Source of the DNA: Eubacteriales bacterium
Lineage (GTDB): Bacteria; Bacillota; Clostridia; Christensenellales; Aristaeellaceae
Length of the DNA stretch: 47,673 nucleotides
Direction: 5' to 3'
Assembly: GCA_021371895.1 (NCBI GenBank)
Contig: JAJFVI010000142.1
Span: forward strand, 1 to 47,673
Shown piece by piece: positions 15,479-41,386 of the stretch (positions are counted from its first letter, which is position 1; every line of letters starts with the position of its first letter). The notes beneath the pieces are model-generated. The model worked only from the letters and a program-made list of their open reading frames with translations. It had not been told where the DNA came from and did no database searches. The position numbers and the translations under genes are program-made.

Positions 15479-16189
15479 TTATTCGCCCAATAATCTCTTT
15501 AAAATCTCATGGTACGCGTCCTCCACGCCACCCAAATCGCGGCGGAAACGATCTTTATCCAGCTTTTCGTGGGTGGTCGCATCCCAGAAACGGCAGGTGT
15601 CGGGGCTGATCTCGTCCGCAAGCACGATGGTTCCGTCCGCCAGGCGGCCAAACTCCAGCTTGAAATCGATCAGCTCAATGTTCAGGTCTTTGAAATAATC
15701 CATCAGCACCTGATTGACCTTCAAAGCGTAATTGCTGATGGTTTCCATTTCTTTGTCGGTCGCCCAGCCCATGGCGGCGATGTGGTACTGGTTCACCATG
15801 GGGTCGCCCAGCGCATCGTCCTTATAGCAAAACTCAAGTACGGTTTTAGCCATGGGCGTGCCTTCCGGAAGCCCCAGACGCTTGGAAAGGCTGCCCGCGG
15901 CCACATTGCGCACAATAACTTCCAAAGGCACGATCTGCACCTTTTTCACCAGCGTTTCCCGCGGGGAAAGCTCCTGCACAAGGTGTGTGGGTACGCCGTT
16001 TTGTTCCAGCAGCCGCATCAGGTGGTTGGTGACGCGGTTGTTGATGACGCCCTTGCCTTCAATGGTGCCTTTTTTGAGGCCGTTGAAGGCGGTTGCGTCG
16101 TCCTTGTAATCCACCAGCACGAGGGTCGGATCGTCGGTCGCATAGACTTTTTTGGCCTTGCCTTCGTAGAGCTGTTCACGCTTTTCCAT
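15479..16189 (-). CDS. purC: SAICAR synthetase PurC
   Basis: [21 protein letters not shown] is the classic PurC N-terminus. The ATG at 16189 is preceded by AGGAGG. The ORF-track start at 16219 adds 10 aa and is less likely. Confidence 0.92.
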
Positions 16190-16243
16190 GGGGTTGCCTC
16201 CTGTTTTTACGTTTTTCAATATGGAAAGCTCGCTGCGGCTTGG

Positions 16244-16729
16244 CTATTCCACAACGAGCTTACGGTCTTTCTCCAGCGTTTTCAGACGTGTTTCTTCCCG
16301 CGCGATCAGCAGCTTCGCCGCGAGATCCGCATCCGAAACGGCGATGATCTGCGCGGCCAGAATCGCCGCGTTGGCCGCGCCGTCGATGGCGACGGTGGCT
16401 ACGGGAATGCCCGCGGGCATCTGCACGGTGGACAGCAAAGCGTCCAACCCATCCAGCGTGGAGGATTTCACCGGGATGCCGATGACGGGGAGCACTGTGC
16501 GTGCCGCCAGCGCACCCGCAAGGTGTGCCGCCTTACCCGCCGCGGCGATGAGTACGCCAAAGCCGTTGCCCGCAGCCTGTGTGGCAAAAGCGGCCGCTTC
16601 GTCAGGCGTGCGATGTGCGCTGAAAATGTGCGCTTCAAAGGGGATACCGAATGCCTTGAGGTGGTCAAAACAGGGTTTAAGGACGGACAAATCACTATCG
16701 CTTCCCATGATAACGGCGACCTTTTTCAC
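16244..16729 (-). CDS. purE: 5-(carboxyamino)imidazole ribonucleotide mutase PurE
   Basis: 161 aa. KVAVIMGSDSD and SAHRTPD motifs are present. It uses a GTG start at 16729 with AAAGGAG upstream. Confidence 0.92.
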   Translation of the reverse strand: MKKVAVIMGSDSDLSVLKPCFDHLKAFGIPFEAHIFSAHRTPDEAAAFATQAAGNGFGVLIAAAGKAAHLAGALAARTVLPVIGIPVKSSTLDGLDALLSTVQMPAGIPVATVAIDGAANAAILAAQIIAVSDADLAAKLLIAREETRLKTLEKDRKLVVE

Positions 16730-16889
16730 GTCTTGGCGGCTCCTTTCAGGTTCTGGTGGCGTTAACCGCTGTTCGGGTCATTCGTTCGGGTTTATTGCGA
16801 AACAGGATAGCCTTGATCGTATCGGAAAAAGCTGAATAACTAGCTGAATAAAAGCATTACACCGTTTACCCGGTATCCGAGCCCTCCTG

Positions 16890-16935: not shown

Positions 16936-16987
16936 AGCAAACGAATATTTGTTTTTGTATGGTATATTCTGTACGGGCCTTCCCAAC

Positions 16988-17030
16988 AAAACGCCGCCAC
17001 GAAACGGTGGGCGTTTCGCGGCGGCGTTTT
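16988..17030. terminator. Bidirectional rho-independent terminator (ends the nitroreductase gene and insulates the pur promoter)
   Basis: AAAACGCCGCCACGAAACG-GTGGG-CGTTTCGCGGCGGCGTTTT forms a 19-bp stem with one mismatch and a 5-nt loop. A and T runs flank it on both sides. Confidence 0.75.
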
Positions 17031-17036
17031 GATTTT

Positions 17037-17798
17037 CTATTCGCATTCAAGGGGTTGCGGGCTTTCTTCTGCCTCGGGCAGGAATGCTTGCAGGTAAGTC
17101 CCGACGGAGCGGTTCATCTCCGATGCGAAGTCGGAATGGTATTTGCGTTTGCAGAATGCCTGCATCCATTCCCGGTAAGGCTTCGCTGTATCCCCAGCCA
17201 GCATGCGTGCCGTTGCGTCCCCGTCCCGGCGGCAATAACGGTTTTCCTGCACGATACCGGCAAGCGGAGCGCGTTCCGGTTTGGGGCGGTTCAGCTGTTG
17301 CGCCGTCGGGTAGCCGAACACCAGCATTGCCGCCGGGAACACCTGCGGCGGCAGGCCGAGCAGCGAGCGGTGCTCCTCGCAGTTTTCCATGATGTCGCCG
17401 ATGTAGCAGGAACCCACGCCCATGCTCCACGCCGCCGTTACGGCGTTCTGCGCGGCGATCATCGCGTCCGAAACGGCAAGCATCAGGTCGCCGGGGCCCG
17501 GTGCGCGGGGCGAGCAGCCGCAGGCGGCGTAAGCGTCGTACCATTTGAGGGTGTCGGCGCAAAAAATCAACACCAGCGGCGCTTCGGCGATGAAGGGCTG
17601 GTGGTCGCAGGTTTCGGAGAGCCTTGTTTTCAGCGCCGGGTCGGTAATAGTCAGTACGGTGTACAGCTGTTGGTTTCCGGCGGTAGGCGCGTTCGAAGCG
17701 GCCAGCAGGATGTTCATTTTAACATCCTCCGGGATCGGATCGCGGGTATACGCGCGTACCGATTTGCGGGTGTACAGGCTTTCCAGCACGGTGTTCAT
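17037..17798 (-). CDS. Nitroreductase family protein
   Basis: MNTVLESLYTRKSVRAYT...NAPTAGNQQ is the typical nitroreductase N-terminus. The ATG at 17798 has a GAGGA-like RBS and a promoter upstream. The ORF-track start at 17933 would run across that promoter. Confidence 0.8.
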   Translation of the reverse strand: MNTVLESLYTRKSVRAYTRDPIPEDVKMNILLAASNAPTAGNQQLYTVLTITDPALKTRLSETCDHQPFIAEAPLVLIFCADTLKWYDAYAACGCSPRAPGPGDLMLAVSDAMIAAQNAVTAAWSMGVGSCYIGDIMENCEEHRSLLGLPPQVFPAAMLVFGYPTAQQLNRPKPERAPLAGIVQENRYCRRDGDATARMLAGDTAKPYREWMQAFCKRKYHSDFASEMNRSVGTYLQAFLPEAEESPQPLECE

Positions 17799-17853
17799 GG
17801 CATTTCCTCTTTTCTCGTCCCGCGGGTGCGGGCCTCCGGCGATGGGTAAGCCG

Positions 17854-21759: not shown

Positions 21760-21843
21760 TGGAATCAAACAATCGGGAGCTGCGCCTTTGAACCGGATGT
21801 GCGTCCAGGGCGGTAACTGTAATGGCACACGGCGGCGGGCGGA

Positions 21844-21873
21844 GGCGGGCGGCTTCCGCCCGCGCGCGTTTTT
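21844..21873 (+). terminator. Possible terminator after dapL
   Basis: GGCGGGCGG-CTT-CCGCCCGC is followed by GCGCG and TTTTT. The T run is offset by 5 nt, so the call is only moderate. Confidence 0.4.
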
Positions 21874-22016: not shown

Positions 22017-24164
22017 ATGCGGTCTGTCCACGCGCGTATTGGCGTGCGCCGCGATACTGCGGCGCTGTTTACGGTCGCTTCCCGCCCCGCGCGCGTCCAG
22101 CGGGGCAAGCGCCTCGCGCTGGCCTGTATGCTTGTATTGCTCTGTGCTTTGCTTTCCGGCTGCGCCGCGCTGGAGGTGCTCAGCACTCCGGCGCCCGCCG
22201 CCGATACGGTGTCCGCTGGCCCCAACCTGGGGCTGCTTGCTCTGCCGACCTACGAAAACGCCGAAGCCGAAAACCCTTCGGAAACCTCTTCCGGTTCTGG
22301 TTACGCCAACGTCGATCTCTGGCTGGACGCGACCCAGAACATGGGCGGCATCAGCACGGTGAAAAGCAGCATGTATCCCCATTCCGGGCGCAAATACCGC
22401 GAAGGCGGCTTCCAGTACCATTACGGCAATACCGTGGGCTGGTATGAAAGCCTGCTGCGGGATTTTCTGGCCGCCGCGGGCGAAACGCACGTGCGTACTC
22501 TGCGCTACGGCAATGAAACCCTGTCCGACGCGTTTCTGGCCGCAGCCGGCCTGACCGGGACGGACGGGCAGGTCACCGCGTCCGTGTGGCGGGATTTGCA
22601 CACCAGCCAGGTCGATACGAACGCTTCGTTCTTTTCCGGGCTGGCCGGCGAGGATATGGCCTCCAGCTTTTACGCGCTGGGTTCCGCCGCGTGGGTCAAC
22701 CGCCTTTCCGCGCTGGCGTCTTCCGATTTGGAAAATCCCACGCTGACGGACGCGATGAGCGCTGCGCTGGATCAACAGATCGCGGGCATCGCGCAGAAAG
22801 ACGACAGTTTTATTTTGCAGCAGGGGCGTGACGGAGAACAATGCGCCCTGCTCAGCGCGCTTGCCAATATCGATACGGATAAGCTCAGCGTGATTACCGT
22901 AGACCCCGCTTCCCTGCGTAAAACCAGCGGCGCGGACGCGCAGGGGCAGCCCATTGCCTATTACGGGCAGGTGCTGCAGGCGTTGGGCGTGTTCGATAAG
23001 GGGCTCTGCGTGGGTATGCTTGATTTTCAGCTGGATTATCTGGGGCAGCTGTCCACCATTTCCACGGCCACGCTCAGCGAGCCGCTCATCTGGGGGCATA
23101 TTATCCTGAACGAGAAAAAGCTGCTGGGCGTGATGCCGCGGCGGATGCTCACGCTGGTCATCGGGACGCGCGCGCGCGTGGACGCCTTTATCCAGAGCCT
23201 TACGCAATTGATCGACGCCGACGTTACGCTCAAGGGCTTGCGCGGAACCCAGGACGAAGAGCTTTCCTACGCCGCTGGCGGGCAGACCGTCGCTTCGCAG
23301 CCTTTCGGCTTTGCGTGGAACGCTACGGTCATCGCGCGGCCGAGCATGGGGTATTATTCCCAGCATACCGAGGGCGTCGTGCTGACCGCCGAAACCACAG
23401 GCGCCTCGGCGGCGGGCGCGACCGTCGCGACCGGCGAAAACGACGTGGCGCTGGTCAGTCTGACGCCCAACACGGAAGGTAAACAGCCCGACCGAACGCT
23501 AAACATAAGCTTCCCACTGCTTTCCGGCGAGGACGGCGCGTCGCTGGACGTGAGCCGTTTAGGCAAAGCGGGGTTGGAAACGCTGGATACGATACTTTTG
23601 TCCCAAACGCAGGAAAACACCTCCGAAAATCTGGCCGCCGCCGAAGCGAACGGGCAGGAAACCGTCGCCTACCGCGATATGCTTTATCTGTTCAGCCGCG
23701 GTACGGAAAGCGACGCCTTTTCGATCACCTCCATTACCGTGCAAAACGGCATGCTGGTCTGCACCGTCGCGGTTAACGGCGAAGCGCTCAAATCCGGCTA
23801 TTATCGGCTGCGTCTCACGGCGGACGCGACCGGCGAGCAGGTGGCTTGGGAAAGCGTGCCCTGGATCGACGGAGAGCAAAGCGTGTCCGCATCGGTCACC
23901 GACGCGGACGTGTACGCGTGGGAAACCTTCACCGCCGCCATAACGCAGTTCGACCGCGATTCCAAGGGCCTGCCCAAGATGTTCCGTAACGCATGGGGGC
24001 CGTATACCACCGATCTTTACCATGGTCTCGCCGTGCCGGCTTGCCCGCCTGTGTACAAGTCCATCCATCTTGCGGAGCTGGCAGCTCAATTCCGCGGCGC
24101 GGCCGCCGCGGACGAAAGCGCTCTGATCCGCTGCGTGTTTGAAGTTTTCGTCGCCTATCCCTAA
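22017..24164 (+). CDS. Large predicted lipoprotein of unknown function (first gene of the four-gene cluster)
   Basis: The ATG at 22017 follows GGGAAGGGAG. The N-terminus ...KRLALACMLVLLCALLSGC carries a lipobox, with the Cys codon at 22161-22163. I recognise no family. VDLWLDATQNMGG vaguely resembles a vWA MIDAS strand. Confidence 0.65.
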   Translation: MRSVHARIGVRRDTAALFTVASRPARVQRGKRLALACMLVLLCALLSGCAALEVLSTPAPAADTVSAGPNLGLLALPTYENAEAENPSETSSGSGYANVDLWLDATQNMGGISTVKSSMYPHSGRKYREGGFQYHYGNTVGWYESLLRDFLAAAGETHVRTLRYGNETLSDAFLAAAGLTGTDGQVTASVWRDLHTSQVDTNASFFSGLAGEDMASSFYALGSAAWVNRLSALASSDLENPTLTDAMSAALDQQIAGIAQKDDSFILQQGRDGEQCALLSALANIDTDKLSVITVDPASLRKTSGADAQGQPIAYYGQVLQALGVFDKGLCVGMLDFQLDYLGQLSTISTATLSEPLIWGHIILNEKKLLGVMPRRMLTLVIGTRARVDAFIQSLTQLIDADVTLKGLRGTQDEELSYAAGGQTVASQPFGFAWNATVIARPSMGYYSQHTEGVVLTAETTGASAAGATVATGENDVALVSLTPNTEGKQPDRTLNISFPLLSGEDGASLDVSRLGKAGLETLDTILLSQTQENTSENLAAAEANGQETVAYRDMLYLFSRGTESDAFSITSITVQNGMLVCTVAVNGEALKSGYYRLRLTADATGEQVAWESVPWIDGEQSVSASVTDADVYAWETFTAAITQFDRDSKGLPKMFRNAWGPYTTDLYHGLAVPACPPVYKSIHLAELAAQFRGAAAADESALIRCVFEVFVAYP

Positions 24165-24214
24165 GCGCGGCGCACGTGCAACCGTCGCCGCCTCGCCAGA
24201 AAGGACGTCCGTCC

Positions 24215-24841
24215 ATGCCCAGAACCGTACATACGACAGTCCAATACCACAACCGCACGAAAGTGCTGCTGTGTTATGCGATCGCCTGGGGGTTGGCGCT
24301 GGCGCTGCCCTGGCTGGGGCTTACATTCCTTTACCCCTATAAGCTGGCGGGCACCGCGCCGGATCTGGCCGCGACGCTTGCGCAGCTGCCGTTTGCCCTG
24401 CCACAGCCCATGCAAAAAACGCTCGTTGCCACCGCGTTTTCCGCCGGTATGCAGACTGACGCTTTGCAGTTGGCACTCGCTGCGCGCGACTTGGTATGGC
24501 AGTACGTTGTTTTTGCGTTTACGGCACTTGCGTGGGTGCTAAGCCTGCTGTGGCAGTTGTTATGGCGTTTCCGCTTCGTGCGCCCCCGGCAGGCCGCGCG
24601 CACGGCCCTGCGTGCGGTGCGCGCCTACCGCTGGTCGATGCTGGGCATCTGGGCGCTCAACCTGCTTTTGGCGCTTTGTGTATACCTCGTCGGCGTAAGT
24701 CGGATCGCGGATCGCACAATGTGGGATTATCTTTTGTATTTTGGCGGATTCGTACTCCAGCCGCTGGCAGCCATGCTTTGCTTCCGGCTGGCCGCGCCGC
24801 CGGCGCTGAGCGGTAAACACGCGTTTTTCCGCCGATTGTAA
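24215..24841 (+). CDS. Predicted 4-TM membrane protein of unknown function
   Basis: There are four hydrophobic segments: VLLCYAIAWGLALALPWLGL, YVVFAFTALAWVLSLLWQLLW, MLGIWALNLLLALCVYLVGV and YFGGFVLQPLAAMLCFRLA. The start is uncertain (ATG at 24215 or the upstream ORF-track start at 24176). Confidence 0.55.
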   Translation: MPRTVHTTVQYHNRTKVLLCYAIAWGLALALPWLGLTFLYPYKLAGTAPDLAATLAQLPFALPQPMQKTLVATAFSAGMQTDALQLALAARDLVWQYVVFAFTALAWVLSLLWQLLWRFRFVRPRQAARTALRAVRAYRWSMLGIWALNLLLALCVYLVGVSRIADRTMWDYLLYFGGFVLQPLAAMLCFRLAAPPALSGKHAFFRRL

Positions 24842-24898: not shown

Positions 24899-27001
24899 AT
24901 GTCCAATTACCTCATCGCCGTAGGCGGCACCGGCAACAAGATACTGGAGGCGCTCGTATATGCCTGTGCGGCCGATGCGTTGTATACGCTGGACGCGCAG
25001 GGCCGCCGCACGCCCCTGCCGGAAGTCCGCGCCCTGATCGTGGATGTGGACGCTGCCTGCGGCAACACCACCCGCGCCAAACAGGCCGCCGAGCATTACG
25101 AACGGGTGCGTTCCGCCTTTGAAACCGCGGGAGTCAGCCGCCGCGGCTTTCACACGGCGCTTACGGTGGAACGCTGGAACATGAACCTCGCCAAACGCTC
25201 CGCCTCCATCGCCGGCATGACGCTTAACCACCGGCGTGATCGGCTGCTGGCCGAAAGCCTCTTTTCCCGCACCGAGGCGGAACTGGAATACAGCGAGGGC
25301 TTCCGCGGCCATCCCGATTTGGGCGTGCTGTTTTTTGCCGATCTGCTCAACCATCTGGGTGAGCGTGCCGCGCAGGGGCAGCCCGACGAAATGGTCGATC
25401 TGCTGGATCAGATCCAGCGGGATCTGGATGCGCTGGAAACGGTCAAGGTCATGCTGGTCGGTTCCATTTTCGGGGGCACCGGCGCCAGCGGCATCCCCAG
25501 CATCTCCCGCTACCTGCGCCAATGTTTCAGCAAGTACGCCGATCACTTCGTGCTTTCGTCGGTGATGATGCTGCCCTATTACGACGTGCCGCCCGCCACC
25601 GTGGACGAGACGTTGGAGATTGTGGTGAAATCCTCGCAATTTTTGGATAAAGCGCGCACCGCGCTGCAATACTACGGCATGGAGGGGATGATCCGCTCCG
25701 GCGAGGACGACCCCGACGGCCTGTATGACGCGCTGTATCTGCTGGGGCTGCCCCGCGATGCTTTTGTGACCACGCGCGTCTACTCCACCGGTTCCCAGAC
25801 GCAGGAAAACGACGCTCACCTGCTGGAATGGCTGGCTGTGCGCTGCGCTTCCATCTTCTTTCGCACCGGGTTTCGCGGCGCGGACGCGCATAACATCGAC
25901 TGCTATTATTACCAGTGGCACTCCCACGACGTATCCTGGGCATGTTTTGACGAGGAAGGCGCCTTGTACCATAACACCTTCGGCGGGCTCATCAAGGCGT
26001 CGGCGCTGTTTTTCTGCGAATGCTATCCCACGCTGCGCGCCTGCGTGCGCCGGGACGAGCGCCGGCTTTCCCGTACGGTCAATTACTGGACGACGTATTT
26101 TTACGACGCGCGCAAGCTGGGCGCAGGGAAACGCGCAGAGCTGGAAAAGCTGATCGATTCGCTTTACCGGCTGATGGCCTTCTACACCAACTGGATGTGG
26201 CAGGTGCTGCGAACGCTGCCCCCCACACTGCGGCCGGAGCGGGAGATTGAGTTGAAAACGCACGAGCTGCAGGCGGTGTACCGAAAGCTTGTGGATACGC
26301 AGGCGGAAAGCCTGGGCCGGGAAAGTGCGCCGGCTTCCGCCACAGGGGAGGACGATGGCACACAGGACGAATATAAACGCCTGAAAGCCAAGCTGGACGA
26401 GCTGATCCCCGCCGTGGGCGGACACGCGTTTTTAAACGCGCTGCAAGCAGAGCGTGAGTTTCGCGCGCAGCGCATGGAAGCCCAGCGGCAAGCATTAAAG
26501 GAGCAAAACGGCAGCATCGCGCGCTGGGAAGGGGAAGATCAGCACCTGATCGACCCCAAGGCACTTAGGCAGGAGAAAAGCCGCCGCGATACCATGCTGC
26601 GCGCGCTGGCCGGTATGGAGGATCGCGCCGCGCTGGTGGAAGCGGATATTGTGCGGGCCGTGGAAAAACATGTGGCGGACGTCACCCCCGCTCTGCGGGA
26701 CGACGAACCTTCTCCCAATAACCTGTTTTCGCCCACCGGGCTGAACGCGATGCACGATCTGCTGGCGCTCTACGGCGCCGAGGCGGAGGAGCGCGACCCC
26801 AAGGCCATGGAGGCGCTTCGCCGCGCCCTGTGGGACGGCTTAAACCGTATCGTCACCCAACGCGTGCCCGACTGTGTCACCGCGGCGCAGGCCGTGGCGG
26901 GGTTGGGCGGCGGCACGCGTGTGGGCGAAGGCCCGCAGGCGGCCTTCGCGAGCTTTACCGCGGCGCTGCTTGCCGCCGTGATGGAGGAGGAAAACGTATG
27001 A
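24899..27001 (+). CDS. Tubulin/FtsZ-superfamily-like GTPase with a long coiled-coil C-terminal region (candidate, Tubulin_2-like)
   Basis: The ATG at 24899 follows GGGAGG. A T1-like loop YLIAVGGTGNKILEAL is encoded near 24917-24940. The T4 signature-like GSIFGGTGASG has GGTGASG at 25472-25492. The C-terminal 250 aa or so are rich in E, R, Q, A and L in a heptad-like pattern. The assignment rests on motifs only. Confidence 0.55.
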   Translation: MSNYLIAVGGTGNKILEALVYACAADALYTLDAQGRRTPLPEVRALIVDVDAACGNTTRAKQAAEHYERVRSAFETAGVSRRGFHTALTVERWNMNLAKRSASIAGMTLNHRRDRLLAESLFSRTEAELEYSEGFRGHPDLGVLFFADLLNHLGERAAQGQPDEMVDLLDQIQRDLDALETVKVMLVGSIFGGTGASGIPSISRYLRQCFSKYADHFVLSSVMMLPYYDVPPATVDETLEIVVKSSQFLDKARTALQYYGMEGMIRSGEDDPDGLYDALYLLGLPRDAFVTTRVYSTGSQTQENDAHLLEWLAVRCASIFFRTGFRGADAHNIDCYYYQWHSHDVSWACFDEEGALYHNTFGGLIKASALFFCECYPTLRACVRRDERRLSRTVNYWTTYFYDARKLGAGKRAELEKLIDSLYRLMAFYTNWMWQVLRTLPPTLRPEREIELKTHELQAVYRKLVDTQAESLGRESAPASATGEDDGTQDEYKRLKAKLDELIPAVGGHAFLNALQAEREFRAQRMEAQRQALKEQNGSIARWEGEDQHLIDPKALRQEKSRRDTMLRALAGMEDRAALVEADIVRAVEKHVADVTPALRDDEPSPNNLFSPTGLNAMHDLLALYGAEAEERDPKAMEALRRALWDGLNRIVTQRVPDCVTAAQAVAGLGGGTRVGEGPQAAFASFTAALLAAVMEEENV

Positions 27002-30000
27002 AGCGCAGGCAGGAGGATCCGCGCGTGGCGCAACCGGCCCGGAAAGAAACCTACCTGACGCTGCTGCCCGATATGGACGAGGGCTTTCATACCGGTTACC
27101 AGACCCGCGCGGGCGTGGTGAGCGACGGTAATCAGCGTCCCCACGAGTGGCTGGAAAGCTTCGCGCGCAACATGCGAACCGCCGGGGAGGACGTCGGCTA
27201 CTCCATTCCGGACGTGCTTGCGGGCGAGGCGCAGCTGCGCCGCCTGATGCGCATGCCCCACGAGGCGGCGATGCGCCATCAGGAAATGGTGGACTGGCGC
27301 GGAGCGCTGGCGGTGCTGCTGCTTTGGGACGGATGGGTGAAGGACGATACCTGGCCCCAGCTCAGCTGCGAGGATATGCTTTCAGGGGAGGGCGGCGCGT
27401 TTCTCCACAGCGTGCGCGCGGCGCTGCCCGCAAACCGAAAAGCCTTTGGGATACGGCTGTTTTTCCTGTCCACGGAACGCGATGGTGTGCCCGAGCGCAA
27501 GGCGCTGGGTATGCTTTCGCCTGTCGTGGCGCTCGCGCCTGCCGCCAACCCCGGCGATCTATCGGGGCTGCTGCCCAAGTGCGTGCATTGGTATAACCGT
27601 GACCGCAAGCGCTTTGAGGATCCCTGCGCCTTTTTAGATGAGGCCGATCGCGCGCGGCTGCTGCAGTACCTTCGCTACCTGCAGGCGCTCAACGAGCGTA
27701 CCGATCTGCAAAGCCCGCTGTACGCAACGGACGCGTCCCTCAGCGGGCTGATCGACCGGTTTATCCGCGATCTGCAAACGCCGCGCACTTCCTGGCGGGA
27801 ACGGTTGGAGGCGGGTGACCCGCACGCGCAGACGGAACTCTACATCCGCGCGTTGGCGGTGTACGGCCTTATGGAGATCAGCGGCCTTACGGGACTCACC
27901 CGGCGGGATATTCCCCTGTCCATCGCGGAGCTCAACTGCAACGTGCTTTTACGCTGGCTGGTTTCCGAGGGCGTCGCCCCGCCGGAGGAATTTGCCGGCA
28001 TCACCGTGACCACCTACGCGTTTGACGGCCTGCCGTTTGCCATCGCCTCCCCGCGTTACCTGCTGGAACCGGTCAACCGGCCGGAAGAGACGGCCACGCT
28101 GCAGCGGCTGTGGGCGGAGATTTCGCTTCCGCTGCAATATAACGGGGAGTGGAACCGCGCCGTGGCCAAGCGCTTTGTGGAGTTGGCCAACCACCTTACC
28201 GGCTTTTCCGGCACCGACAGCCGCGCCAGCCGCCGCGTGATCGAATTGATGCGGCAATGGAGCGCGAAGCTTGCCAATTTCCGCGAATCGGGCGACCGGG
28301 TGCTTTCGCTGAAGCTGCCGCTTTCGGATATGCCCTCCACACTGTCCGGCTTGACGCGGGAGATGGTGGGCATTGACGATACGGAGGCGCTGGCGGGCGC
28401 GTTTTCGGATTGTCTGCTGCTGTGCGCAGGCGACCCGCCCTTTGGCGACGTGGTGCTCAACGAACACTGCGCGGTGCGCGGCGCGGAAAAGTTATACGCC
28501 ATTCCGCCGGTGGCCCCGGCGCTTGCGCTGTGGCTGTCGCGCGCGGCCGAGGAAAGCCAGGATGATCTGCTGCGCCCCCGCCTGCCCGCCGAAGCGTTTG
28601 ATTTTGAGCTGATTCAGGATGCCCATGGGCGTAAGATTCGCGCCCGGATGCACCTTACGCGCAAACAACGTGCGCAGGACGCAACCTTTCAAAACCGCAT
28701 TGAACTGACCAGCGATTATACGTTGGGTACGGAATTTGCCCGGGGGACTGCGGTACCGGTGGCGACCGGGGATTTGCCCACGGTGCGCTGCTGGCCCGCC
28801 GCGCGTCTGGCGCGGGGGCAATGGACAGCCTACTATGTGCTCGCCCAGCGGCCGGACGCGGTGGATGTGCTGGTGCCCGGCGAGGACGGCATGGTACAGG
28901 GTGAGCCGCGCTGCGTTGCGGACGGCGAGGGGGAGCCCCCCGCCGAGCACCGCTGGCAGACCGCACGCACCCGCACCTGGCCGATGTACGTGGCGCTGGC
29001 CCGCGGTAAGCTGAGCCTTGGCGTGTTGCCCAACGACGAACCCGTTTTGCAGCTCAAGCGTGAGGCCCCTGCCGCCGTCGCCATCGATTTCGGCTCCAAC
29101 GCCACCACCGTGATGCTCCGGCAGGGGGAACAGATACGCCCGGCCTCGTTGCCGCCCGAGATGCTTAAAACTTTGCTGAAAGGACGTGTGCAGGACGACT
29201 TGCGCCTGCCTGACGAGCTGCTGCCTGCCCTCTGCTACATGGACGAACGCCGCCCCTCCACCTTTATCAGCGTGATGGACATGTTCAGCGATGACGAGCA
29301 GAAATGGAACGTCCCGCTGCTGGACGGGCACATCTATTACGCGCCCGATCTGGCCGCGCTGCTCAAAAAGAACCCCAACGTCCTCTACTACGATCTCAAA
29401 TGGGGTGAGGAACCCTATGTGGTGCGGTGCCTTCGGCTCTTTCTGAAACAAACTATGCTGCAGGCTTCGCTGGCGGCGCGGCTGGTCGGCTCGCCGACGC
29501 TCAGCTGGCGTATTTCCATGCCCAACGCCATGCCGCTTTACCGGCAGGAAGCTTATCTGGAAATGGTGCGCTCGCTAAGCAAGGAAGTCGCCGCCGATAC
29601 GGGCATGCAGCTGACCGGGGATATGCCGGCAGTACTCTTCGCCCATGAAAACCAGGCGGACGGCCTTTATTTCCGCTACCGTAACGAGGTCAATGCGCGC
29701 AACGGCTATGTGAACATGGACGTGGGCGGCGGTACGACCGACCTGAGCGTGTGGCTGGGCGGCGCGTCGCGGGCTTCCATTGAGGCGTCGCTGCTGCTGG
29801 GTTGCCGGCAGATTCTCTTCGATTCGCTTTCCTCACGCCGCCGTGCCGAGTTCGAGGCGGATTTTGCCAATGCGGACGCGGGTTTGTACCGTCTGGTGCA
29901 GGAGATGGTGCGCGCTTTCGCGGCCGGCCGCAATTCGCTGCGTGCCCGCCAGAAAAACGTATTCCTGCTGGATGCGTTTTTTGCCCGCCATAGCGAAAGC

Positions 30001-30648
30001 ATCGCCGAAACCATGGCCGCCATCCGCGGCGAAGGCCGGGTGAGCCTGCTGGAAAGTCTGCTGCTCTTGAACTTCGGCTTCCTCTTCCGCCTTTGCGGAG
30101 AATTGCTGGATCGCTGTGATTACAGCGAAGAAACCCGCGCCCAGCTTTGCCCGCGTATGGAGATCTGCGTGGCGGGCAACGGCGGCCAGTTTTTAAAGAT
30201 CTTTGACCGCGATACGCGCACCAAGCTGTTCCGCCTGGCGCTTTCCGCCCTTAACCCCGATCACCCCGTGCGGGAGCTGATATTGCTGCAAAGTCGGCAT
30301 CCCAAGCAGGAGGTCGCCCGCGGGTTGCTGGCGGATATTACGCGTCTGGCCAGCAGCGTGCAGGGCGGCGAGGCCGTGGGCCCCGCGCAAACGCTGGCGG
30401 TGCCTTCGGAGAAGCGCCGCGCACTGCTCAAGGAATACTTACAGGATTTTTATTCCGCCTTCCCTCAGGCGGGGGAAAAGCTGCTGGGCAGAGCTTTTGA
30501 GCGGGATGTGAACCCGCAGGTCGTGCGGTTGAAGGCCGCCGCCGAGATTGAGCTGGAAACGGTGCTGGACAACGAAATGGACGACGGGGACGAATTCGGC
30601 GGGTACGTGCGCGCCTTCGCCGCCATGAAGCGTCTGTGGGAAATCTGA
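26998..30648 (+). CDS. 1216-aa protein with C-terminal actin/Hsp70-fold (ASKHA) ATPase motifs
   Basis: The ATG at 26998 overlaps the upstream stop as ATGA. Phosphate-1-like AAVAIDFGSN is at 29071-29100. Phosphate-2-like DVGGGTTD is at 29719-29742. Adenosine-like VAGNGGQ is at 30169-30189. I recognise no motif in the N-terminal 690 aa or so. Confidence 0.6.
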   Translation: MKRRQEDPRVAQPARKETYLTLLPDMDEGFHTGYQTRAGVVSDGNQRPHEWLESFARNMRTAGEDVGYSIPDVLAGEAQLRRLMRMPHEAAMRHQEMVDWRGALAVLLLWDGWVKDDTWPQLSCEDMLSGEGGAFLHSVRAALPANRKAFGIRLFFLSTERDGVPERKALGMLSPVVALAPAANPGDLSGLLPKCVHWYNRDRKRFEDPCAFLDEADRARLLQYLRYLQALNERTDLQSPLYATDASLSGLIDRFIRDLQTPRTSWRERLEAGDPHAQTELYIRALAVYGLMEISGLTGLTRRDIPLSIAELNCNVLLRWLVSEGVAPPEEFAGITVTTYAFDGLPFAIASPRYLLEPVNRPEETATLQRLWAEISLPLQYNGEWNRAVAKRFVELANHLTGFSGTDSRASRRVIELMRQWSAKLANFRESGDRVLSLKLPLSDMPSTLSGLTREMVGIDDTEALAGAFSDCLLLCAGDPPFGDVVLNEHCAVRGAEKLYAIPPVAPALALWLSRAAEESQDDLLRPRLPAEAFDFELIQDAHGRKIRARMHLTRKQRAQDATFQNRIELTSDYTLGTEFARGTAVPVATGDLPTVRCWPAARLARGQWTAYYVLAQRPDAVDVLVPGEDGMVQGEPRCVADGEGEPPAEHRWQTARTRTWPMYVALARGKLSLGVLPNDEPVLQLKREAPAAVAIDFGSNATTVMLRQGEQIRPASLPPEMLKTLLKGRVQDDLRLPDELLPALCYMDERRPSTFISVMDMFSDDEQKWNVPLLDGHIYYAPDLAALLKKNPNVLYYDLKWGEEPYVVRCLRLFLKQTMLQASLAARLVGSPTLSWRISMPNAMPLYRQEAYLEMVRSLSKEVAADTGMQLTGDMPAVLFAHENQADGLYFRYRNEVNARNGYVNMDVGGGTTDLSVWLGGASRASIEASLLLGCRQILFDSLSSRRRAEFEADFANADAGLYRLVQEMVRAFAAGRNSLRARQKNVFLLDAFFARHSESIAETMAAIRGEGRVSLLESLLLLNFGFLFRLCGELLDRCDYSEETRAQLCPRMEICVAGNGGQFLKIFDRDTRTKLFRLALSALNPDHPVRELILLQSRHPKQEVARGLLADITRLASSVQGGEAVGPAQTLAVPSEKRRALLKEYLQDFYSAFPQAGEKLLGRAFERDVNPQVVRLKAAAEIELETVLDNEMDDGDEFGGYVRAFAAMKRLWEI

Positions 30649-30758: not shown

Positions 30759-32765
30759 TTAGGGCTTATAGTAATGGATGATCTTCACACATCGGTCGTT
30801 ATTGAGCAAATATTGCAATATCCACACCTTGCCGTCCGTTGTTTTGCAGGAATATTGCACGGTACGGGTATCGTCGTCGTTTTGCAGCACCACGCCGGAG
30901 TTGAGATCGTTGTAATAGAGGTTGCGGCTGCCGTCCTGGTTGGGAAGCATCCCCATATCCTTATAAGCGGCCACGATGTCGCTTTCGCTGTCACCCAGCC
31001 CCACGCCGCGCGGCGACGCGGCAATCTTATCGTTCATCTCGATGCGCACCATCTGCCATTTGTTCTCGTTAAGGATAAACACGGCATACCCCCAAGCATA
31101 CTCCAGGTGCTGCGCCTCGTCCGCCAGGGTCAGGTATTGTGTGGTAACAGCCGATTTGGGCTGTCCGAACTGCGCCTTGAAATCTTCTACGGAGGTGCTG
31201 TTGAGCTTGAAGCCGTCGAAGGTGTCCGCGTCGCTGTAGATCGCCTGCAGATACGGCTTGGCCTTGAATTTGTAGGTGACTTCCAGCGTGCTGGATTGTT
31301 TGCCATAGCCGTTTACGGCGATCGCCCGCAGGGTGACGCCGCCGCTGGGCAGTTGGATAGGCGTTCCATCGTACACGGGGCTCAGTTCCGGGTCGGGGGT
31401 GGATCCGTCGATGGTGTAATAAAAGGTCTGCTGATCTTCCTTGGCGAGTTGCTCCTTGGTCTTTTTACTGCGCTGCTCCCTGGTTTGGGTATTGGCGCCC
31501 GCGCGTAAACCGACTGTGTGGAGGCTAGTATAGGTGTTGGGTGCGAGGTTGCATTTGGGGGCGGGGGGCGAGGGGTAATAAACGGTGTAGGACATACTCA
31601 TCTCGTCGCTCACCAGGTCGTCCGCCACGCATACGGCGCGCAGGACGAAAGTGCCTTCGGGGATCGTGACGGTGTTGTTCTCCACCAGTTGTCCGCCCTT
31701 CGGCAGCACCGCGGCGCTATCCAGCGTATAGTAAATCTCGTACCCCTGCGGTGAGGTAACGGTGATGCGCTGTTCCAACTCGTAGCGGCCCGCGAGGTGA
31801 TCGGTGTCCACCTGGGGCGTATTGGGGATAAAATCCTTGCGCTGCTGGCGGAAGCTGTCTTTATCGGTGCTCTGGTAAGCCAGCAGCATCATATCGGCGG
31901 CTTCCGGGTCGCGCCCGGTATCCAGGTAGAGGGTGATAAGCGCCGTATACGCTTCGGTGCGCGAAGGGTTGACCGTTTTGATCAGCGATTGGTAAACCGC
32001 TTCCGCTTCGTTATCCATGCTGTTAAGTTCGTAAGCGGTACTCAATTGCATCAGGCCGTCGTAGTTCTCGGGATCCAGAATATCGGCGATGCGGAAAGCT
32101 ATAATGGAATCGTCCATATCGCCTTCATCCAAATACTCCTGCCCGACCACCCAGTAGGACTGCGCGGGCGCGTCGTCCAGCGATTTAAGCGCTTCCTTAC
32201 GCGCTGTTTCCCTTGCGGAGTCGGCGCTGGAGGCCAGCGTAAGCAGCGCCTCGTTGGTGGCGAGCACACGCTTGCGCGCGGTCATGCGCTGTCCGGCGTC
32301 GGAGGTGTTCAGGTAAACCAGGTAGCCTATGCCCGCGAGCATGGCGAGGCCTACGCAGATTACGCCGATCATCATCCAGTTTACGGGATGCTGGGACACG
32401 CCCTTGGCTTTGCCGCGGCGGGAAACCACCGGCCGCGTGCGGCTGCTGCCGTGCACCGGTACGCCCCGGCGGGTGTTGGGGCGGCTGGCAAAGGTTTCCA
32501 GCACGGGCCCGGAAGCCTTTGGCGGCTTGCGGTGCACGCCGCGCTCCTGTTCCACGGGGAAGGGTGAGTTTTCAAAATCCCCATACTCGGGTATTTCGCT
32601 GCGCGCCTCGTCCGGCAGGGAAGTAGGAGCAGCGCTATGGCGGCCCTGCCTGAGGGCGCGCACGCCCGTATCCCGCGGCTCGTCGCTGCGGCTTACCATT
32701 GCGCCGCAAATGTGGCAAATAATCTCGTCCTCCTCAAGATAGTTGCCACAGCGTTTACAGATCAT
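30759..32765 (-). CDS. Zinc-ribbon / single-TM / TPR protein with C-terminal chitobiase-hexosaminidase-C-like (Fn3-associated) domains
   Basis: The ATG at 32765 (MICKRCGNYLEEDEIICHICGAMV, a CxxC...CxxC zinc ribbon) follows GGGAGGAA. The TM segment is WMMIGVICVGLAMLAGIGYLVYL. Downstream are TPR-like repeats and two YYT(L/I)DGS...LRA(V/I) modules. The ORF-track start at 32909 would overlap the upstream gene. Confidence 0.7.
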   Translation of the reverse strand: MICKRCGNYLEEDEIICHICGAMVSRSDEPRDTGVRALRQGRHSAAPTSLPDEARSEIPEYGDFENSPFPVEQERGVHRKPPKASGPVLETFASRPNTRRGVPVHGSSRTRPVVSRRGKAKGVSQHPVNWMMIGVICVGLAMLAGIGYLVYLNTSDAGQRMTARKRVLATNEALLTLASSADSARETARKEALKSLDDAPAQSYWVVGQEYLDEGDMDDSIIAFRIADILDPENYDGLMQLSTAYELNSMDNEAEAVYQSLIKTVNPSRTEAYTALITLYLDTGRDPEAADMMLLAYQSTDKDSFRQQRKDFIPNTPQVDTDHLAGRYELEQRITVTSPQGYEIYYTLDSAAVLPKGGQLVENNTVTIPEGTFVLRAVCVADDLVSDEMSMSYTVYYPSPPAPKCNLAPNTYTSLHTVGLRAGANTQTREQRSKKTKEQLAKEDQQTFYYTIDGSTPDPELSPVYDGTPIQLPSGGVTLRAIAVNGYGKQSSTLEVTYKFKAKPYLQAIYSDADTFDGFKLNSTSVEDFKAQFGQPKSAVTTQYLTLADEAQHLEYAWGYAVFILNENKWQMVRIEMNDKIAASPRGVGLGDSESDIVAAYKDMGMLPNQDGSRNLYYNDLNSGVVLQNDDDTRTVQYSCKTTDGKVWILQYLLNNDRCVKIIHYYKP

Positions 32766-32809
32766 GAAACGGTTTCCTCCCTTCCCGAAATTGCGATGCC
32801 GCCTGTTGG

Positions 32810-33496
32810 TTACGGCGTCACCTGTGGGGTCGGGGACTGGTTGTTGACCGCGTGGTCGTTGATCACCAGCTGAAATTCCTGCCCCAGAAAAGCCGCGGCT
32901 TTTTCGCACATCACGATGCGCGGCATGTAGATACTCAGGTAATCCAACACGCTGCTGGAACTGTCCATGGTCAGGGATTGCCGTATGAGGCGGGTTTTCC
33001 GATCGACAATCACAGTGTTTTGCTGTATGGAGAAATTGACGCGGTCGTGCACGTCGCCGGGGTCGGGCCGACCGTTGCGCACACGGCTTTTGTGTGCGTC
33101 GCTCTTATCGCCGATGACCAGCGCCGCGCTTACGGCGCTGCTTACGATGCCGCTCTGCTCCTCATGGTTGCCTACGGCGGTGATGATCTCCACGGTATCC
33201 ACGATGCTCATGCCCGCCTCCTTAAGGATGGGAAAGAGCATTACGGCGCCGTTGGGGCCGTGATCGTGGCGGTTGATGCTGTTGCCCACGTCGTGTACCC
33301 AGCCGGCGATGGCCGCCAGCTCGATTTCCCGCTCACTGTACCCTAAAGCTTTGAGGATGTAGCTCGCCGTGCGGCTGACGTAACTCAGGTGTCTGGGCCC
33401 GTGGTCGGTGTACCCCAGCGCTTCCAGGTAATGGTTGCCCGCTTTGACCAGCGCACGGATACTCTCGTTTCTCTTGATCTCATCCAGTGTGATCAT
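32810..33496 (-). CDS. HD-domain phosphohydrolase
   Basis: 228 aa. The H...HD motif is present (GPRHLSY...GWVHDVGNSINRHDHG). Confidence 0.8.
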   Translation of the reverse strand: MITLDEIKRNESIRALVKAGNHYLEALGYTDHGPRHLSYVSRTASYILKALGYSEREIELAAIAGWVHDVGNSINRHDHGPNGAVMLFPILKEAGMSIVDTVEIITAVGNHEEQSGIVSSAVSAALVIGDKSDAHKSRVRNGRPDPGDVHDRVNFSIQQNTVIVDRKTRLIRQSLTMDSSSSVLDYLSIYMPRIVMCEKAAAFLGQEFQLVINDHAVNNQSPTPQVTP

Positions 33497-37922: not shown

Positions 37923-38915
37923 TCACGGTTGCGGATTGCTGCCGTCCTGTCCGTCTTCTTCGTCCTCATCAGTTTCCACATAGAGGCCTCGGTTGAGTTG
38001 CGCGCCTTCGATTTTTACGTTGATGTACTTATCAAACACGGCGTTTGTGTAGCTGGCAGCCACGAACCGGCTGAGAGAAAAACCCAAAAGCACGTAGTAG
38101 AGGATGCAGATCATCAGCGCCCATTGGAAATACGGCGTCAGATAGCTGACTACCGCAGCGATCAGCACAGGCACGATGGAAAGCAACTTCAGCCCCACCG
38201 TGATCGGCAAACGACCGATGGTTAAAAGGAGGCTGTTGCGCAGCACGTCGCGGTAGCGGAGGTGGTAGGTAACGATCAGCGGGTAGGTGTACATCAGGCT
38301 CATCAGCCACACAATGCCCAGCAGAAGCGTCAGCACCTGCGGAATGATATAGAGCGTATTGCTTTGCGCCATCTGCCCGTAAAACGACCAACATACGTAC
38401 ACGATCACCGGCACAAATCCCGTGATGACGCTGGTGATGAGCCCCTGCTTCCAGTTTTCCTTTACGGCGTCCTTATAATCACCCCACAGAAAGGCGTGCT
38501 CGTCGCGTGCCCAGTTGCGGGTTACCAGGCTGATGCCTGCCGTAAACGGACCCGTAATGGCAAGCGCCGGGATTAAGAATAGCAGCCCCTGGAATGCTAT
38601 TGACTTTATGGCGTCCACGTACAGCGCCTGTTGCGTGGCAAACTCCGCAGCCGCCAGCGTACCCGCGTCCAACTGAGCCTGCATGTCGGCCAGATTGACC
38701 GTGGCCGAGTAGAACATAAGCACATGGAAGCCGATCACCAGCAGCGCCGGAAGCCAGCTTAGCATATACAACAAATTTAACCGCATCAACCCACTGAAGC
38801 GCGTGCGCAGCGTCTCCCAGAAAAGCTGGGTGCGGGTTCCGGGCAGATCCTCGTGGGTGTAATCCCCCTTACCGCTCTTTCCGTAGAAGTAACCATTCAT
38901 GAATTTTCCAAACAT
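37923..38915 (-). CDS. DUF624 (YesL-like) multi-pass membrane protein
   Basis: 330 aa. The N-terminus (FWETLRTRFSGLMRLNLLYMLSWLPALLVIG) and several TM segments resemble the YesL/DUF624 family. It has an acidic C-terminal tail. Confidence 0.65.
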   Translation of the reverse strand: MFGKFMNGYFYGKSGKGDYTHEDLPGTRTQLFWETLRTRFSGLMRLNLLYMLSWLPALLVIGFHVLMFYSATVNLADMQAQLDAGTLAAAEFATQQALYVDAIKSIAFQGLLFLIPALAITGPFTAGISLVTRNWARDEHAFLWGDYKDAVKENWKQGLITSVITGFVPVIVYVCWSFYGQMAQSNTLYIIPQVLTLLLGIVWLMSLMYTYPLIVTYHLRYRDVLRNSLLLTIGRLPITVGLKLLSIVPVLIAAVVSYLTPYFQWALMICILYYVLLGFSLSRFVAASYTNAVFDKYINVKIEGAQLNRGLYVETDEDEEDGQDGSNPQP

Positions 38916-38967
38916 AAACCGTACCTCCCCTGTGTGCCGCGCGCATGACGCTAACGACCGTTAAAAT

Positions 38968-38996
38968 ATTATACCATGTTTTTGTTCAATCCACAA
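38968..38996 (-). promoter_or_regulatory. Candidate promoter of the DUF624 gene
   Basis: The minus strand reads TTGTGG, N17, then TGgTATAAT (TATAAT at 38973-38968). It lies about 50 nt upstream of the ATG at 38915. Confidence 0.45.
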
Positions 38997-39087
38997 CCAG
39001 CGCAAGTCCAGCATTTTCAACGTTCTTTGAACTTTTTCCACCCGTAAATTATGCTAAAGTTGCGCCCATTAGTAACAGGTTAGTATC

Positions 39088-39243
39088 TTAGTTTACGGCA
39101 GCTTCCGCGTCCTGCGCAGCCTGTTTCATGGCGCTTCGCACCTCGTCGGGCGATACGCCGGGGGCAACGCACACGGTTACCGTAACCTTCCCGGAATCCG
39201 TAAAACTTAACATGGTCATGTCGGGTTTTTCTTCATCAACCAT
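39088..39243 (-). CDS. Small hypothetical phage ORF (51 aa, not in the ORF track)
   Basis: My hand translation reads MVDEEKPDMTMLSFTDSGKVTVTVCVAPGVSPDEVRSAMKQAAQDAEAAVN. The ATG at 39243 overlaps the upstream stop (ATGGTTGA) and is preceded by GGAGGA. Confidence 0.35.
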   Translation of the reverse strand: MVDEEKPDMTMLSFTDSGKVTVTVCVAPGVSPDEVRSAMKQAAQDAEAAVN

Positions 39244-39577
39244 TGCCTTCATCCTCCGTGCCGTCCGTCGTAGGGGGGAAAATCAGCGGAGAAATAACGC
39301 CGTTCCAAACGGCGCATACTCCGGCGCTGATTGCCGTGCCCAGCAAGCTAATCAATGCGCTTCCGAAAGCATCCCCGGAAAGCGCCCATAGCGCCGGGAA
39401 CGACGTGGTAAAAATACCCGTGGCCGATTGCCAGAACGTTTTCATCGTGCGCACCCATACGTCACGGGTGCGAATTCTCGCCCAGATTTCAGCAAACGTC
39501 TTTCCGGTGGAAGCAATCGCCGCTCTGATCTTGGCAGGCACAAAGGCCGTGTACATTTTCAGCAAAAACTGTTTCAT
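39236..39577 (-). CDS. Putative holin / phage membrane protein
   Basis: 113 aa with hydrophobic segments (GIFTTSFPALWAL and ALISLLGTAISAGVCAVW). It sits in the lysis cassette, and its start is ATGA-coupled to the upstream gene. Confidence 0.45.
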   Translation of the reverse strand: MKQFLLKMYTAFVPAKIRAAIASTGKTFAEIWARIRTRDVWVRTMKTFWQSATGIFTTSFPALWALSGDAFGSALISLLGTAISAGVCAVWNGVISPLIFPPTTDGTEDEGNG

Positions 39578-39888
39578 TCCGTTTCTCCTTTCGCCGTCCT
39601 GCGGCCGGAAGTAAGATCGTCCAGTCGCTTGTGCGCTTGTTTGGTGCTTTGCTCACAGGCAATAAGTCGTTCGCGCGTTTCTTTGGATTCGTTGCTCATT
39701 ACACCCATGCTGGTTTTAATTTCGCTTACATCGGTGCGTATAAAATCCAATTTGACTGACACCATGGTCATATCCGCGCCTTCTTTTTGAGCATCTGTTC
39801 GGTCGTTCCGGCGCTTGGTTGCCAATCCGAAATAAAGCGCGACCGCTACCGACAAGGTACCAAGCAGTACAGATATTTCAATTGTCAT
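39574..39888 (-). CDS. Phage membrane protein (N-terminal TM plus coiled coil), possible lysis accessory or holin-like
   Basis: MTIEISVLLGTLSVAVALYFGLATKRR is followed by a charged helical region. I use the ATG at 39888 because the longer ORF-track version (to 40218) would overlap the endolysin gene. Confidence 0.45.
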   Translation of the reverse strand: MTIEISVLLGTLSVAVALYFGLATKRRNDRTDAQKEGADMTMVSVKLDFIRTDVSEIKTSMGVMSNESKETRERLIACEQSTKQAHKRLDDLTSGRRTAKGETE

Positions 39889-39913
39889 AGCATCCCGTCC
39901 AGTCCTTGTCTTT

Positions 39914-40714: not shown

Positions 40715-40834
40715 GGGTTCTTTCTCCCCCTTCGCGTGTCAAGCAAAAAAGAAGCCTGTCAAAACGCATATAACGTTCATATAAGGCTTCTTTCTTGTCC
40801 TTTGATATTTCGGTCGTATCGAAAAACGCCCCCG

Positions 40835-40963
40835 TTATTCGCCAGCCAACGCGCCGCAATCAAGGTCGGTCAAAACTTCCCTCACCTGCTCTTTGATCAA
40901 CGCGGGTACGTCGGCAAACATCTTCTTACCTTTGATGATCAGTGTTGCGTAGATAATCGCCAT
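40835..40963 (-). CDS. Small CD1375/XkdX-like phage protein, copy 2
   Basis: MAIIYATLIIKGKKMFADVPALIKEQVREVL... starts at the ATG at 40963, preceded by GAGGTGA. It is paralogous to the adjacent 35-aa ORF. Confidence 0.55.
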   Translation of the reverse strand: MAIIYATLIIKGKKMFADVPALIKEQVREVLTDLDCGALAGE

Positions 40964-41003
40964 TTCTTTCACCTCATTTCGATAAAAAGTATAAAACCAC
41001 AGG

Positions 41004-41111: not shown

Positions 41112-41128
41112 GGTTTTTCACTCCTTCC

Positions 41129-41383: not shown

Positions 41384-41386
41384 CTG

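Follow-up and report, generated by a model that had tools for sequence, protein, structure and literature searches.

In the FtsZ–FtsA system, neighboring genes encode a tubulin-fold GTPase and an ATPase of the ASKHA (actin/Hsp70) type, both of which operate at the membrane, where FtsA tethers and organizes FtsZ and the C-terminal peptide of FtsZ binds FtsA. To our knowledge, this is the one well-understood partnership between tubulin-fold and actin-fold proteins in bacteria. Here, we describe a gene pair with a comparable combination of folds in a 47,673-nucleotide stretch of DNA from a Clostridia bacterium of the family Aristaeellaceae (contig JAJFVI010000142.1 of assembly GCA_021371895.1; hereafter the window). 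Gene C encodes a tubulin-like GTPase and gene D, which overlaps its end, encodes a giant protein with an ASKHA ATPase domain. An initial annotation of the window had singled out these two genes; we find that they belong to a larger, membrane-spanning cassette of four genes, A–B–C–D. If C and D act together as proposed below, they would constitute a second, independent tubulin-fold/actin-fold pairing in bacteria, outside the divisome. The likeness to FtsZ–FtsA is an analogy only: the genes for the two folds adjoin and a conserved tail of C recalls the C-terminal peptide of FtsZ, whereas the sequences show no relationship, the two genes come in the opposite order, D is three times as large as FtsA and the cassette would be attached to the membrane via a separate protein with four transmembrane segments.

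The closest counterparts in the literature are themselves predictions. Makarova and Koonin (2010; PMC2875224) predicted membrane-remodelling operons centered on FtsZl1 that also encode vWA proteins, P-loop GTPases, kinases and OmpA, and the feature in the window is best described as a variant of these never characterized FtsZl1-centered systems, set apart by a family of giant, unannotated Hsp70-fold ATPases encoded next to a tubulin-like GTPase or fused to it. Both have a protein of the Tubulin_2 type with a coiled coil in its C-terminal part, and a gene just upstream of it encodes an extracytoplasmic or membrane-associated protein. Both operons also include small membrane proteins and, in some of the distant cassettes with a D gene, OmpA/MotB-like genes. 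The described FtsZl1 proteins are longer, however, at ∼900–1100 residues vs 500–700 for C here, and are accompanied by a recognizable vWA partner, whereas A is not detectably a vWA protein and the constant partner is the ASKHA giant. The main text of PMC2875224 mentions no actin- or Hsp70-fold partner. Its supplement lists three large neighbors of FtsZl1, namely amb2961 (1626 residues, COG0443 DnaK), Cagg_1315 (1083 residues) and BACCAC_02058 (1152 residues), which could be relatives of D.

Kaur, Burroughs, Iyer and Aravind (2020; PMC7159879) described DO-GTPase/GAP1-N2 conflict systems from Firmicutes and Actinobacteria in which some of the same parts recur. Firmicutes versions combine extracellular or membrane proteins with proteins in which a tubulin domain is followed by a coiled coil at the C-terminus, and other versions use Hsp70-fold proteins that lack a peptide-binding domain. 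In those systems the tubulin and Hsp70 proteins are alternatives, whereas in the ABCD cassette they are always found together. We rejected assignment of the cassette to the DO-GTPase/GAP1 systems because the defining genes, one or two for TRAFAC DO-GTPases, one for GAP1 and one for an FNIII-repeat protein, are absent: no P-loop GTPase, GAP1 or FNIII family was detected with Pfam and NCBIfam in A, B, C, D or the flanking genes. Our literature searches found no published description of a tubulin-like protein paired with an ASKHA giant.

The assignment of D to the ASKHA superfamily rests on motifs, conservation and a predicted structure. The motifs lie exactly where the initial annotation had read them, with AAVAIDFGSN at residues 692–701 (29071–29100), DVGGGTTD at 908–915 (29719–29742) and VAGNGGQ at 1058–1064 (30169–30189), and they supply the phosphate-1 (DxG, residues 697–699), phosphate-2 (DxGGGTxD, 908–915) and adenosine (GxGG, 1060–1063) motifs in the ASKHA order. 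The annotation had also suggested that the motif residues be checked in homologs. They are invariant in the clade to which the window protein belongs: D697, G699, K801, E884, D908, G910, G911 and D915 are the same in 79 of 79 D sequences, and 78 of them have both G1060 and G1062, the last one having a gap there. They are also kept in a more distant set of relatives (group III), where D697, G699, T703, K801, D908, G910 and D915 are found in 26 of 26 sequences and E884 in 25.

An AlphaFold2 (AF2) model of residues 560–1216, built on an alignment of 48 sequences, has a mean predicted local distance difference test score (pLDDT) of 90.4 and a predicted template modelling score of 0.91. Secondary structure assignment with DSSP shows the β-β-β-α-β-α-β-α core in both lobes of the model. 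A Foldseek search with this model returned 554 matches in the Protein Data Bank (PDB) at E ≤ 1e-3, and the top 50 are all nucleotide-binding domains (NBDs) of Hsp70, Hsc70 or DnaK; the best has E = 3.7e-9 and a probability of 1.0, with a target-normalized TM score of ∼0.5 and 13–14% identity. The model and its matches agree with the two-lobed ASKHA fold that had been proposed for this region, and the predicted structure confirms the C-terminal part of D as an ASKHA ATPase domain. E884 is placed at the start of the helix that follows strand 5 of lobe I, and K801 and E884 are likely, by position only, to be the counterparts of the catalytic lysine and the connect-1 glutamate (DnaK E171) of Hsp70. 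In our best explanation of the cassette, set out below, D would be a catalytically competent cytoplasmic ATPase.

The NBD of Hsp70 is thus the best structural match to D, with the phosphate-1, connect-1, phosphate-2 and adenosine elements in the same order, but the domain in D is larger (∼425 residues vs 380) and contains insertions. Membership of D in the Hsp70 family proper was ruled out because D has no match to the HSP70 model PF00012, no C-terminal substrate-binding domain (the region that follows the NBD consists of only ∼100 mainly helical residues by DSSP) and no J-domain or GrpE partner (neither a DnaJ nor a GrpE family was detected in A, B or C with Pfam and NCBIfam). Its other links to known families are similarly faint. 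We found no Pfam match to D at E ≤ 0.01, the MreB_Mbl and FtsA models included, no match in NCBIfam or PADLOC, and none among PDB sequences with phmmer. A profile of 37 D sequences gave sub-threshold matches to FtsA and exopolyphosphatase in the PDB at phosphate-2 (E = 1.9–2.7), the FtsA match (E = 1.9) covering 23 residues, and one distant relative of D matches MreB_Mbl weakly (E = 0.033). By these family models D does not group with the actin-like filament formers MreB, ParM and FtsA.

The initial annotation had found no recognizable motif in the first ∼690 residues of D, and this half of the protein likewise has no match in Pfam, the PDB or BFVD, a database of predicted viral structures. 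The AF2 model of residues 1–700 has a pLDDT of 84. Foldseek searches with the N-terminal half gave nothing significant, with best E-values of 0.03 in the PDB, where the matches are weak and Ig-like, and 0.18 in BFVD; because the search does not report the query position, the Ig-like matches can only be assigned provisionally, and they probably belong to the all-β region at residues 535–680. The modelled N-terminal region may represent a new fold. It is preceded by the segment of residues 1–68, predicted to be disordered, in which the stretch from Y19 to W51 is near-invariant. In the relatives with fused or split genes described below, matches to the D profile mostly begin at position ∼54–98 and the first ∼90 positions are mostly unmatched. 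The segment is possibly a docking site.

The upstream gene had been called tubulin-like, and C indeed matches Tubulin_2 (PF13809) with E = 2.1e-7 and 31 bits vs a gathering score of 27; its match to Tubulin (PF00091) is below threshold. The protein consists of a T1 motif (GGTGNK, 24923–24940), a T4 motif (GGTGASG, 25472–25492), a helical domain, a coiled coil of ∼200 residues and a conserved C-terminal tail. Both glycine-rich motifs are invariant in 23 C sequences, and the tail is kept even in forms that have no coiled coil. Most homologs of C carry a precomputed PF13809 match and the NCBI name 'tubulin-like doman-containing protein'.

The overlap of C and D at 26998 is as first described: the ATG of D (26998–27000) shares bases with the TGA of C (26999–27001). 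A mechanical open reading frame call allows D to be extended upstream to a GTG at 26830. We place the start at ATG 26998 because a Shine–Dalgarno sequence, GGAGGAG, is present 9–15 nt 5′ of it and the N-termini of homologs agree with it. The 4-nt overlap (ATGA, or GTGA in a few cases) is found in ∼35 of 48 related loci, and a gap of 20–30 nt separates the genes in the others. Together with the gene fusions described below, the overlap makes translational coupling and a fixed stoichiometry of C and D plausible.

The pairing of C and D is nearly universal. Scanning a single genome for each GTDB species yielded 50 loci, all of them in Clostridia metagenome-assembled genomes labelled Candidatus Limiplasma, Christensenellaceae, Clostridiales or Oscillospiraceae, and C is present in all 46 related genomes where the upstream DNA is sufficient. 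A metagenome scan with the group III alignment gave 80 loci. In 52 of them at least 1700 nt of sequence is available 5′ of D; of these, 49 have a separate, adjacent C-like gene, two have a C::D fusion and one has neither. Occurrence of D homologs without a tubulin-like partner, which the initial annotation had named as evidence against its reading, is not borne out in 46 of 46 related and 51 of 52 distant loci, and the neighbor search that had been proposed found C either beside D or fused to it. The idea that this architecture is unusual did not hold up, however. A word-indexed search found 78 relatives of D, all named 'hypothetical'. When 1.84 billion representatives were searched exhaustively with a profile, 1088 clusters (50% identity) reached E ≤ 1e-3, of which 715 had E ≤ 1e-10 and 186 had E ≤ 1e-30; the family is unannotated but not rare.

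The relatives take several forms. In other Clostridia there is a split, two-gene form, with neither A nor B, in which a D-like protein of ∼1040–1110 residues is encoded by a gene whose start is overlapped by a C-like gene for 619–640 residues. Fused proteins of ∼1550–1770 residues (L058:4210–9438; L125, L131 and L060; proteins P0231–P0277) also occur, and the fused locus L058 is syntenic with the split locus L056. We considered whether these relatives, typically of ∼1700 residues, were something other than C::D; Pfam is silent on them, and hhalign showed that they are fusions, with the first ∼650 residues aligning with the whole of C (99.6% probability, E = 6.9e-24). The group III cassettes resemble that of the window. 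An example, GCA_004196315.1 (45% GC), encodes a 456-residue lipoprotein with the sequence FLDATTSMEG, a 154-residue membrane protein, a 486-residue Tubulin_2 protein and a 1304-residue D-like protein. One further relative of D (L005:488–3613, P0078) has 1041 residues, is 24% identical to D and lies on a contig of 70% GC; the product of the preceding gene ends in a coiled-coil-like tail, the next gene encodes threonyl-tRNA synthetase, and the contig is too short to judge whether a tubulin-like gene is present.

C–D pairing or fusion reaches from gut Clostridia to cyanobacterial plasmids, yet D has no Pfam, NCBIfam or PADLOC model and its database copies carry the label 'hypothetical' throughout. 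On the plasmids, the D-like genes are annotated 'hypothetical protein'; the C-like gene bears that name too in Picosynechococcus but is called 'tubulin-like doman-containing protein' in Gloeothece. D-like genes, the only genes examined in these cases, are also found on plasmids of PCC 73109, PCC 7003 and Synechococcus NIES-970. A close Picosynechococcus relative, PCC 7002, is taken to be naturally transformable. Because cultured cyanobacteria carry plasmid relatives of the cassette, the role of an FtsZl1 system would be accessible to experiment.

In the window the four genes lie on the same strand with gaps of 11, 57 and −4 nt, and the order A–B–C–D is found in 46 of 46 related Clostridia loci that have enough upstream DNA. 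The pairwise distances of the A, B, C and D proteins are correlated with r = 0.78–0.92, and in a Mantel test of C against D the observed value was reached by none of 999 permutations. These tight correlations show that the four genes have been inherited together. We also take the cassette to be its own transcription unit because a terminator-like hairpin closes the upstream dapF–dapL unit (Table 1). Counterparts of A and B accompany the distant cassettes as well: where there is enough upstream DNA, plain BLAST clustering found an A-like gene in 34 of 39 distant loci and a B-like gene in 26 of 39. A counterpart of B with ∼156 residues is present in 36 distant loci, and A is homologous to the ∼450-residue lipoproteins of distant cassettes (hhalign 98%, E = 1.4e-13).

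A is a predicted lipoprotein whose extracytoplasmic portion is predicted to contain an α/β region with the conserved motif VDLWLDA(T/S)QxMGG, and near residues 481–590 it has a weakly Ig-like stretch that matches a PECAM Ig domain with E = 0.006. The protein has no Pfam match. Motifs of the form DA(T/S)xSM and VTDLFQ, found both in A and in its distant counterparts, are similar, at the level of motifs only, to a metal-ion-dependent adhesion site. We considered A as a vWA protein and obtained negative results with Pfam on 23 and 31 members and with profile searches of the PDB; hhalign of A against five vWA domains gave a probability of 2.7%.

Our best explanation of the whole, which we hold tentatively and at slightly less than even confidence, is that C and D form an NTPase complex within a membrane-spanning unit of four proteins that remodels the cell envelope. 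Our inferences about the physical complex and its stoichiometry, about polymerization, about which way signals travel and about what the cassette does in the cell are as follows. D would be the obligate partner of a C protein of the FtsZl1 type, probably at 1:1 and in a stable cytoplasmic complex. C and D would make up the cytoplasmic half of the system, the four-transmembrane protein B would anchor it at the membrane and the lipoprotein A would be its extracytoplasmic half. By closing its lobes with the help of ATP, D would nucleate, cap or remodel the GTP-dependent self-assembly of C at the membrane, much as FtsA tethers and organizes FtsZ or as a clamp of the Hsp70 type remodels its client, and the state of the assembly would be transmitted via B to A on the outer face. 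In the Clostridia lineage the output would be local remodelling or organization of the cell envelope rather than cell division itself. We favor envelope remodelling because the cassette is vertically inherited, is flanked by housekeeping genes and repeatedly lies next to envelope-biosynthesis genes. With somewhat less confidence again, we consider it possible that C and D represent an ancient, widespread and obligate two-NTPase module, wired by a small membrane protein to a lipoprotein, that would function as a transmembrane cytomotive or signalling machine, and that the first 530 residues of D adopt a new fold. That such a module would serve envelope remodelling or envelope surveillance is a possibility of the same order. 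The poorly understood FtsZl1 branch of the tubulin superfamily gains from these findings a constant partner with an intact ATPase site, and a concrete architecture of four proteins that is predicted to cross the membrane.

Several observations weigh against this explanation, and some of them also favor alternatives to it. Binding of C to D, polymerization of C and enzyme activity are read from sequence and gene context, and as functional evidence the envelope-gene neighborhood is suggestive only. A profile of C recovered no FtsZ or tubulin chain from the PDB, only coiled-coil proteins that match residues 470–640. The fusions have degenerate T1 and T4 motifs (LGETAERA instead of GGTGNK, for example), degeneration of the tubulin G-motifs is common in the split and fused Clostridial forms, and in these relatives E884, T913 and D915 are often replaced; turnover of NTP is therefore not essential in every version. 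Such replacements are what would be expected if the motifs of D were relics and D an inactive pseudo-ATPase scaffold. We regard this as highly improbable, given that the tested nucleotide-contacting positions are invariant or nearly so in the window clade (79 of 79) and in group III (25–26 of 26). Conservation this strong would not be expected unless catalysis is under selection. The nature of the nearest structures, which are the NBDs of Hsp70 and not actin, MreB or ParM, raises a different alternative, in which D would be a dedicated chaperone or disassembly factor of the Hsp70 type for C or the loops of B, acting catalytically and without fixed stoichiometry. The N-terminal and β-sandwich regions would grip the client and ATP would drive the folding, loading or recycling of C or B. 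The β-rich and helical regions that flank the NBD may be likened to the β and α subdomains of the Hsp70 substrate-binding domain, and in eight distant loci a bona fide Hsp70 (PF00012, E = 1.2e-84) is encoded after D, in addition to it. We nevertheless judge this role for D quite improbable: the domain order of D is opposite to that of Hsp70, the HSP70 match and the J-domain or GrpE partner are missing, as noted above, and the covalent C::D fusions and the start/stop overlap favor a stable, equimolar association over catalytic turnover.

The remaining observations bear on whether the cassette serves in conflict or in defense against phages. A and B would then sense perturbation of the envelope or attachment of a phage and trigger NTP-dependent assembly of C and D in the cytoplasm. 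Such an assembly would confine the invader, halt the cell or call in effectors that are encoded elsewhere. In favor of this reading, the GTPase-centered conflict systems of Kaur et al. (PMC7159879) include both tubulin proteins with coiled coils and Hsp70-like proteins. The cassette is carried by plasmids of Gloeothece verrucosa PCC 7822 (L141, NC_014503.1) and Picosynechococcus sp. PCC 8807 (L142, NZ_CP016489.1), and only some strains have it. In one syntenic relative (L004:10001–12698; ENA ERZ21862218 contig_24) it has been lost: the dapF–dapL synteny is kept, A and B are gone and the single 788-codon reading frame that remains has a C-like N-terminal part (35% identity) followed by a piece of D (residues 48–290). 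The cassette has decayed in this genome and is therefore dispensable there. In some distant cassettes D is followed by other genes (L061:4659–8143; L095:3774–5336), either the true Hsp70 mentioned above or, in L061, a MotA-like long coiled-coil protein (PADLOC ZorA, E = 2.9e-7), an OmpA protein resembling ZorB (E = 1.5e-15) and a nuclease of the SNase type that matches PADLOC C3a212 (E = 1.5e-30). The plasmid carriage and these additional genes speak for conflict over housekeeping. The last three recall the Zorya system, but such genes occur neither in the window cassette nor in any of the 46 related Clostridia loci, and A, B, C and D match no Zorya model in PADLOC. Also against a conflict role, none of seven window proteins, nor A, C and D of L059, has a match in PADLOC-DB 2.0, and the window cassette contains no effector, DO-GTPase, GAP1 or nuclease. 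It lies amid housekeeping genes both in the window and in L001, its four genes have diverged in step with no reshuffling, and the good conservation of C and D differs from what fast-evolving sensors show. A tblastn search of 50,697 phage records found no homolog, a result that also led us to reject a phage origin. A conflict system is less likely, albeit the main rival among the three alternatives, and we retain envelope remodelling by a C–D complex as the preferred explanation.

Table 1. Coordinates of the cassette, the regions of D and the upstream terminator-like element in the window
Feature	Position	Strand	Description	Basis
Terminator-like element	21835–21873	+	3′ of dapL; hairpin at 21835–21863 (12 pairs, 10 G–C), then a T-run	
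Gene A	22017–24164	+	715-residue predicted lipoprotein, lipobox LLSGC	Translation, alignment
Gene B	24176–24841	+	Membrane protein of ∼208–221 residues, four hydrophobic segments	Start at GTG 24176 or ATG 24215
Gene C	24899–27001	+	700-residue tubulin-like GTPase, FtsZl1/Tubulin_2 type, ATG 24899	Pfam PF13809
C/D junction	26983–27001	+	Shine–Dalgarno GGAGGAG at 26983–26989, ATGA overlap at 26998–27001	
Gene D	26998–30648 (stop included)	+	1216-residue protein	Open reading frame call and translation
D, residues 1–68	26998–27201	+	Strongly conserved N-terminal peptide, predicted disordered	AF2 pLDDT ∼40
D, residues 69–530	27202–28587	+	α/β and helical region	AF2 pLDDT mostly 85–96
D, residues 535–680	28600–29037	+	All-β region, probably a sandwich	DSSP strands
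D, residues 688–1112	29059–30333	+	Predicted ASKHA ATPase domain, nearest to the Hsp70 NBD	AF2, Foldseek, conservation
D, residues 1113–1216	30334–30645	+	Mainly helical C-terminal region	DSSP

The genes that flank the cassette differ among its branches. In the window, MurB, the pur operon, GMP synthase, dapF and dapL lie upstream, and no mobile-element genes adjoin the cassette. The pur operon is also near the cassette in L001, whose D protein is 48% identical to that of the window. Two gene families alternate directly 5′ of gene A across a range of 41–87% identity in D. In deeper branches, a GT4 glycosyltransferase gene lies directly 5′ of the cassette in at least 24 loci, and Bac_transf, NTP_transferase and epimerase genes are found upstream in L056 and L058. 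On the other side, a family of 347 residues and unknown function is encoded 3′ of D in 17 distant loci.

Three other parts of the window are worth recording. Convergent to D, a gene at 30759–32909 on the minus strand encodes a 716-residue protein with an N-terminal zinc ribbon, TPR repeats and chitobiase/Fn3-associated C-terminal domains, and homologs with 67–77% identity are found 3′ of the cassette in seven of the closest relatives (L006–L008, L010, L012 and L016 among them) and in none further out. Between the pur genes and GMP synthase, two open reading frames of 418 and 296 codons (15509–16765 and 16959–17849, plus strand) have no Pfam match at E ≤ 1e-4. The last part of the window, 38000–47673, has a GC content of 0.50–0.53 vs ∼0.61 elsewhere, and its minus strand encodes a phage baseplate J protein, Mu Gp48 and a tail-collar fiber, followed by a reverse transcriptase at 41387–42532. 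This region looks like the end of a prophage, with a probable diversity-generating retroelement beside the tail fiber gene.

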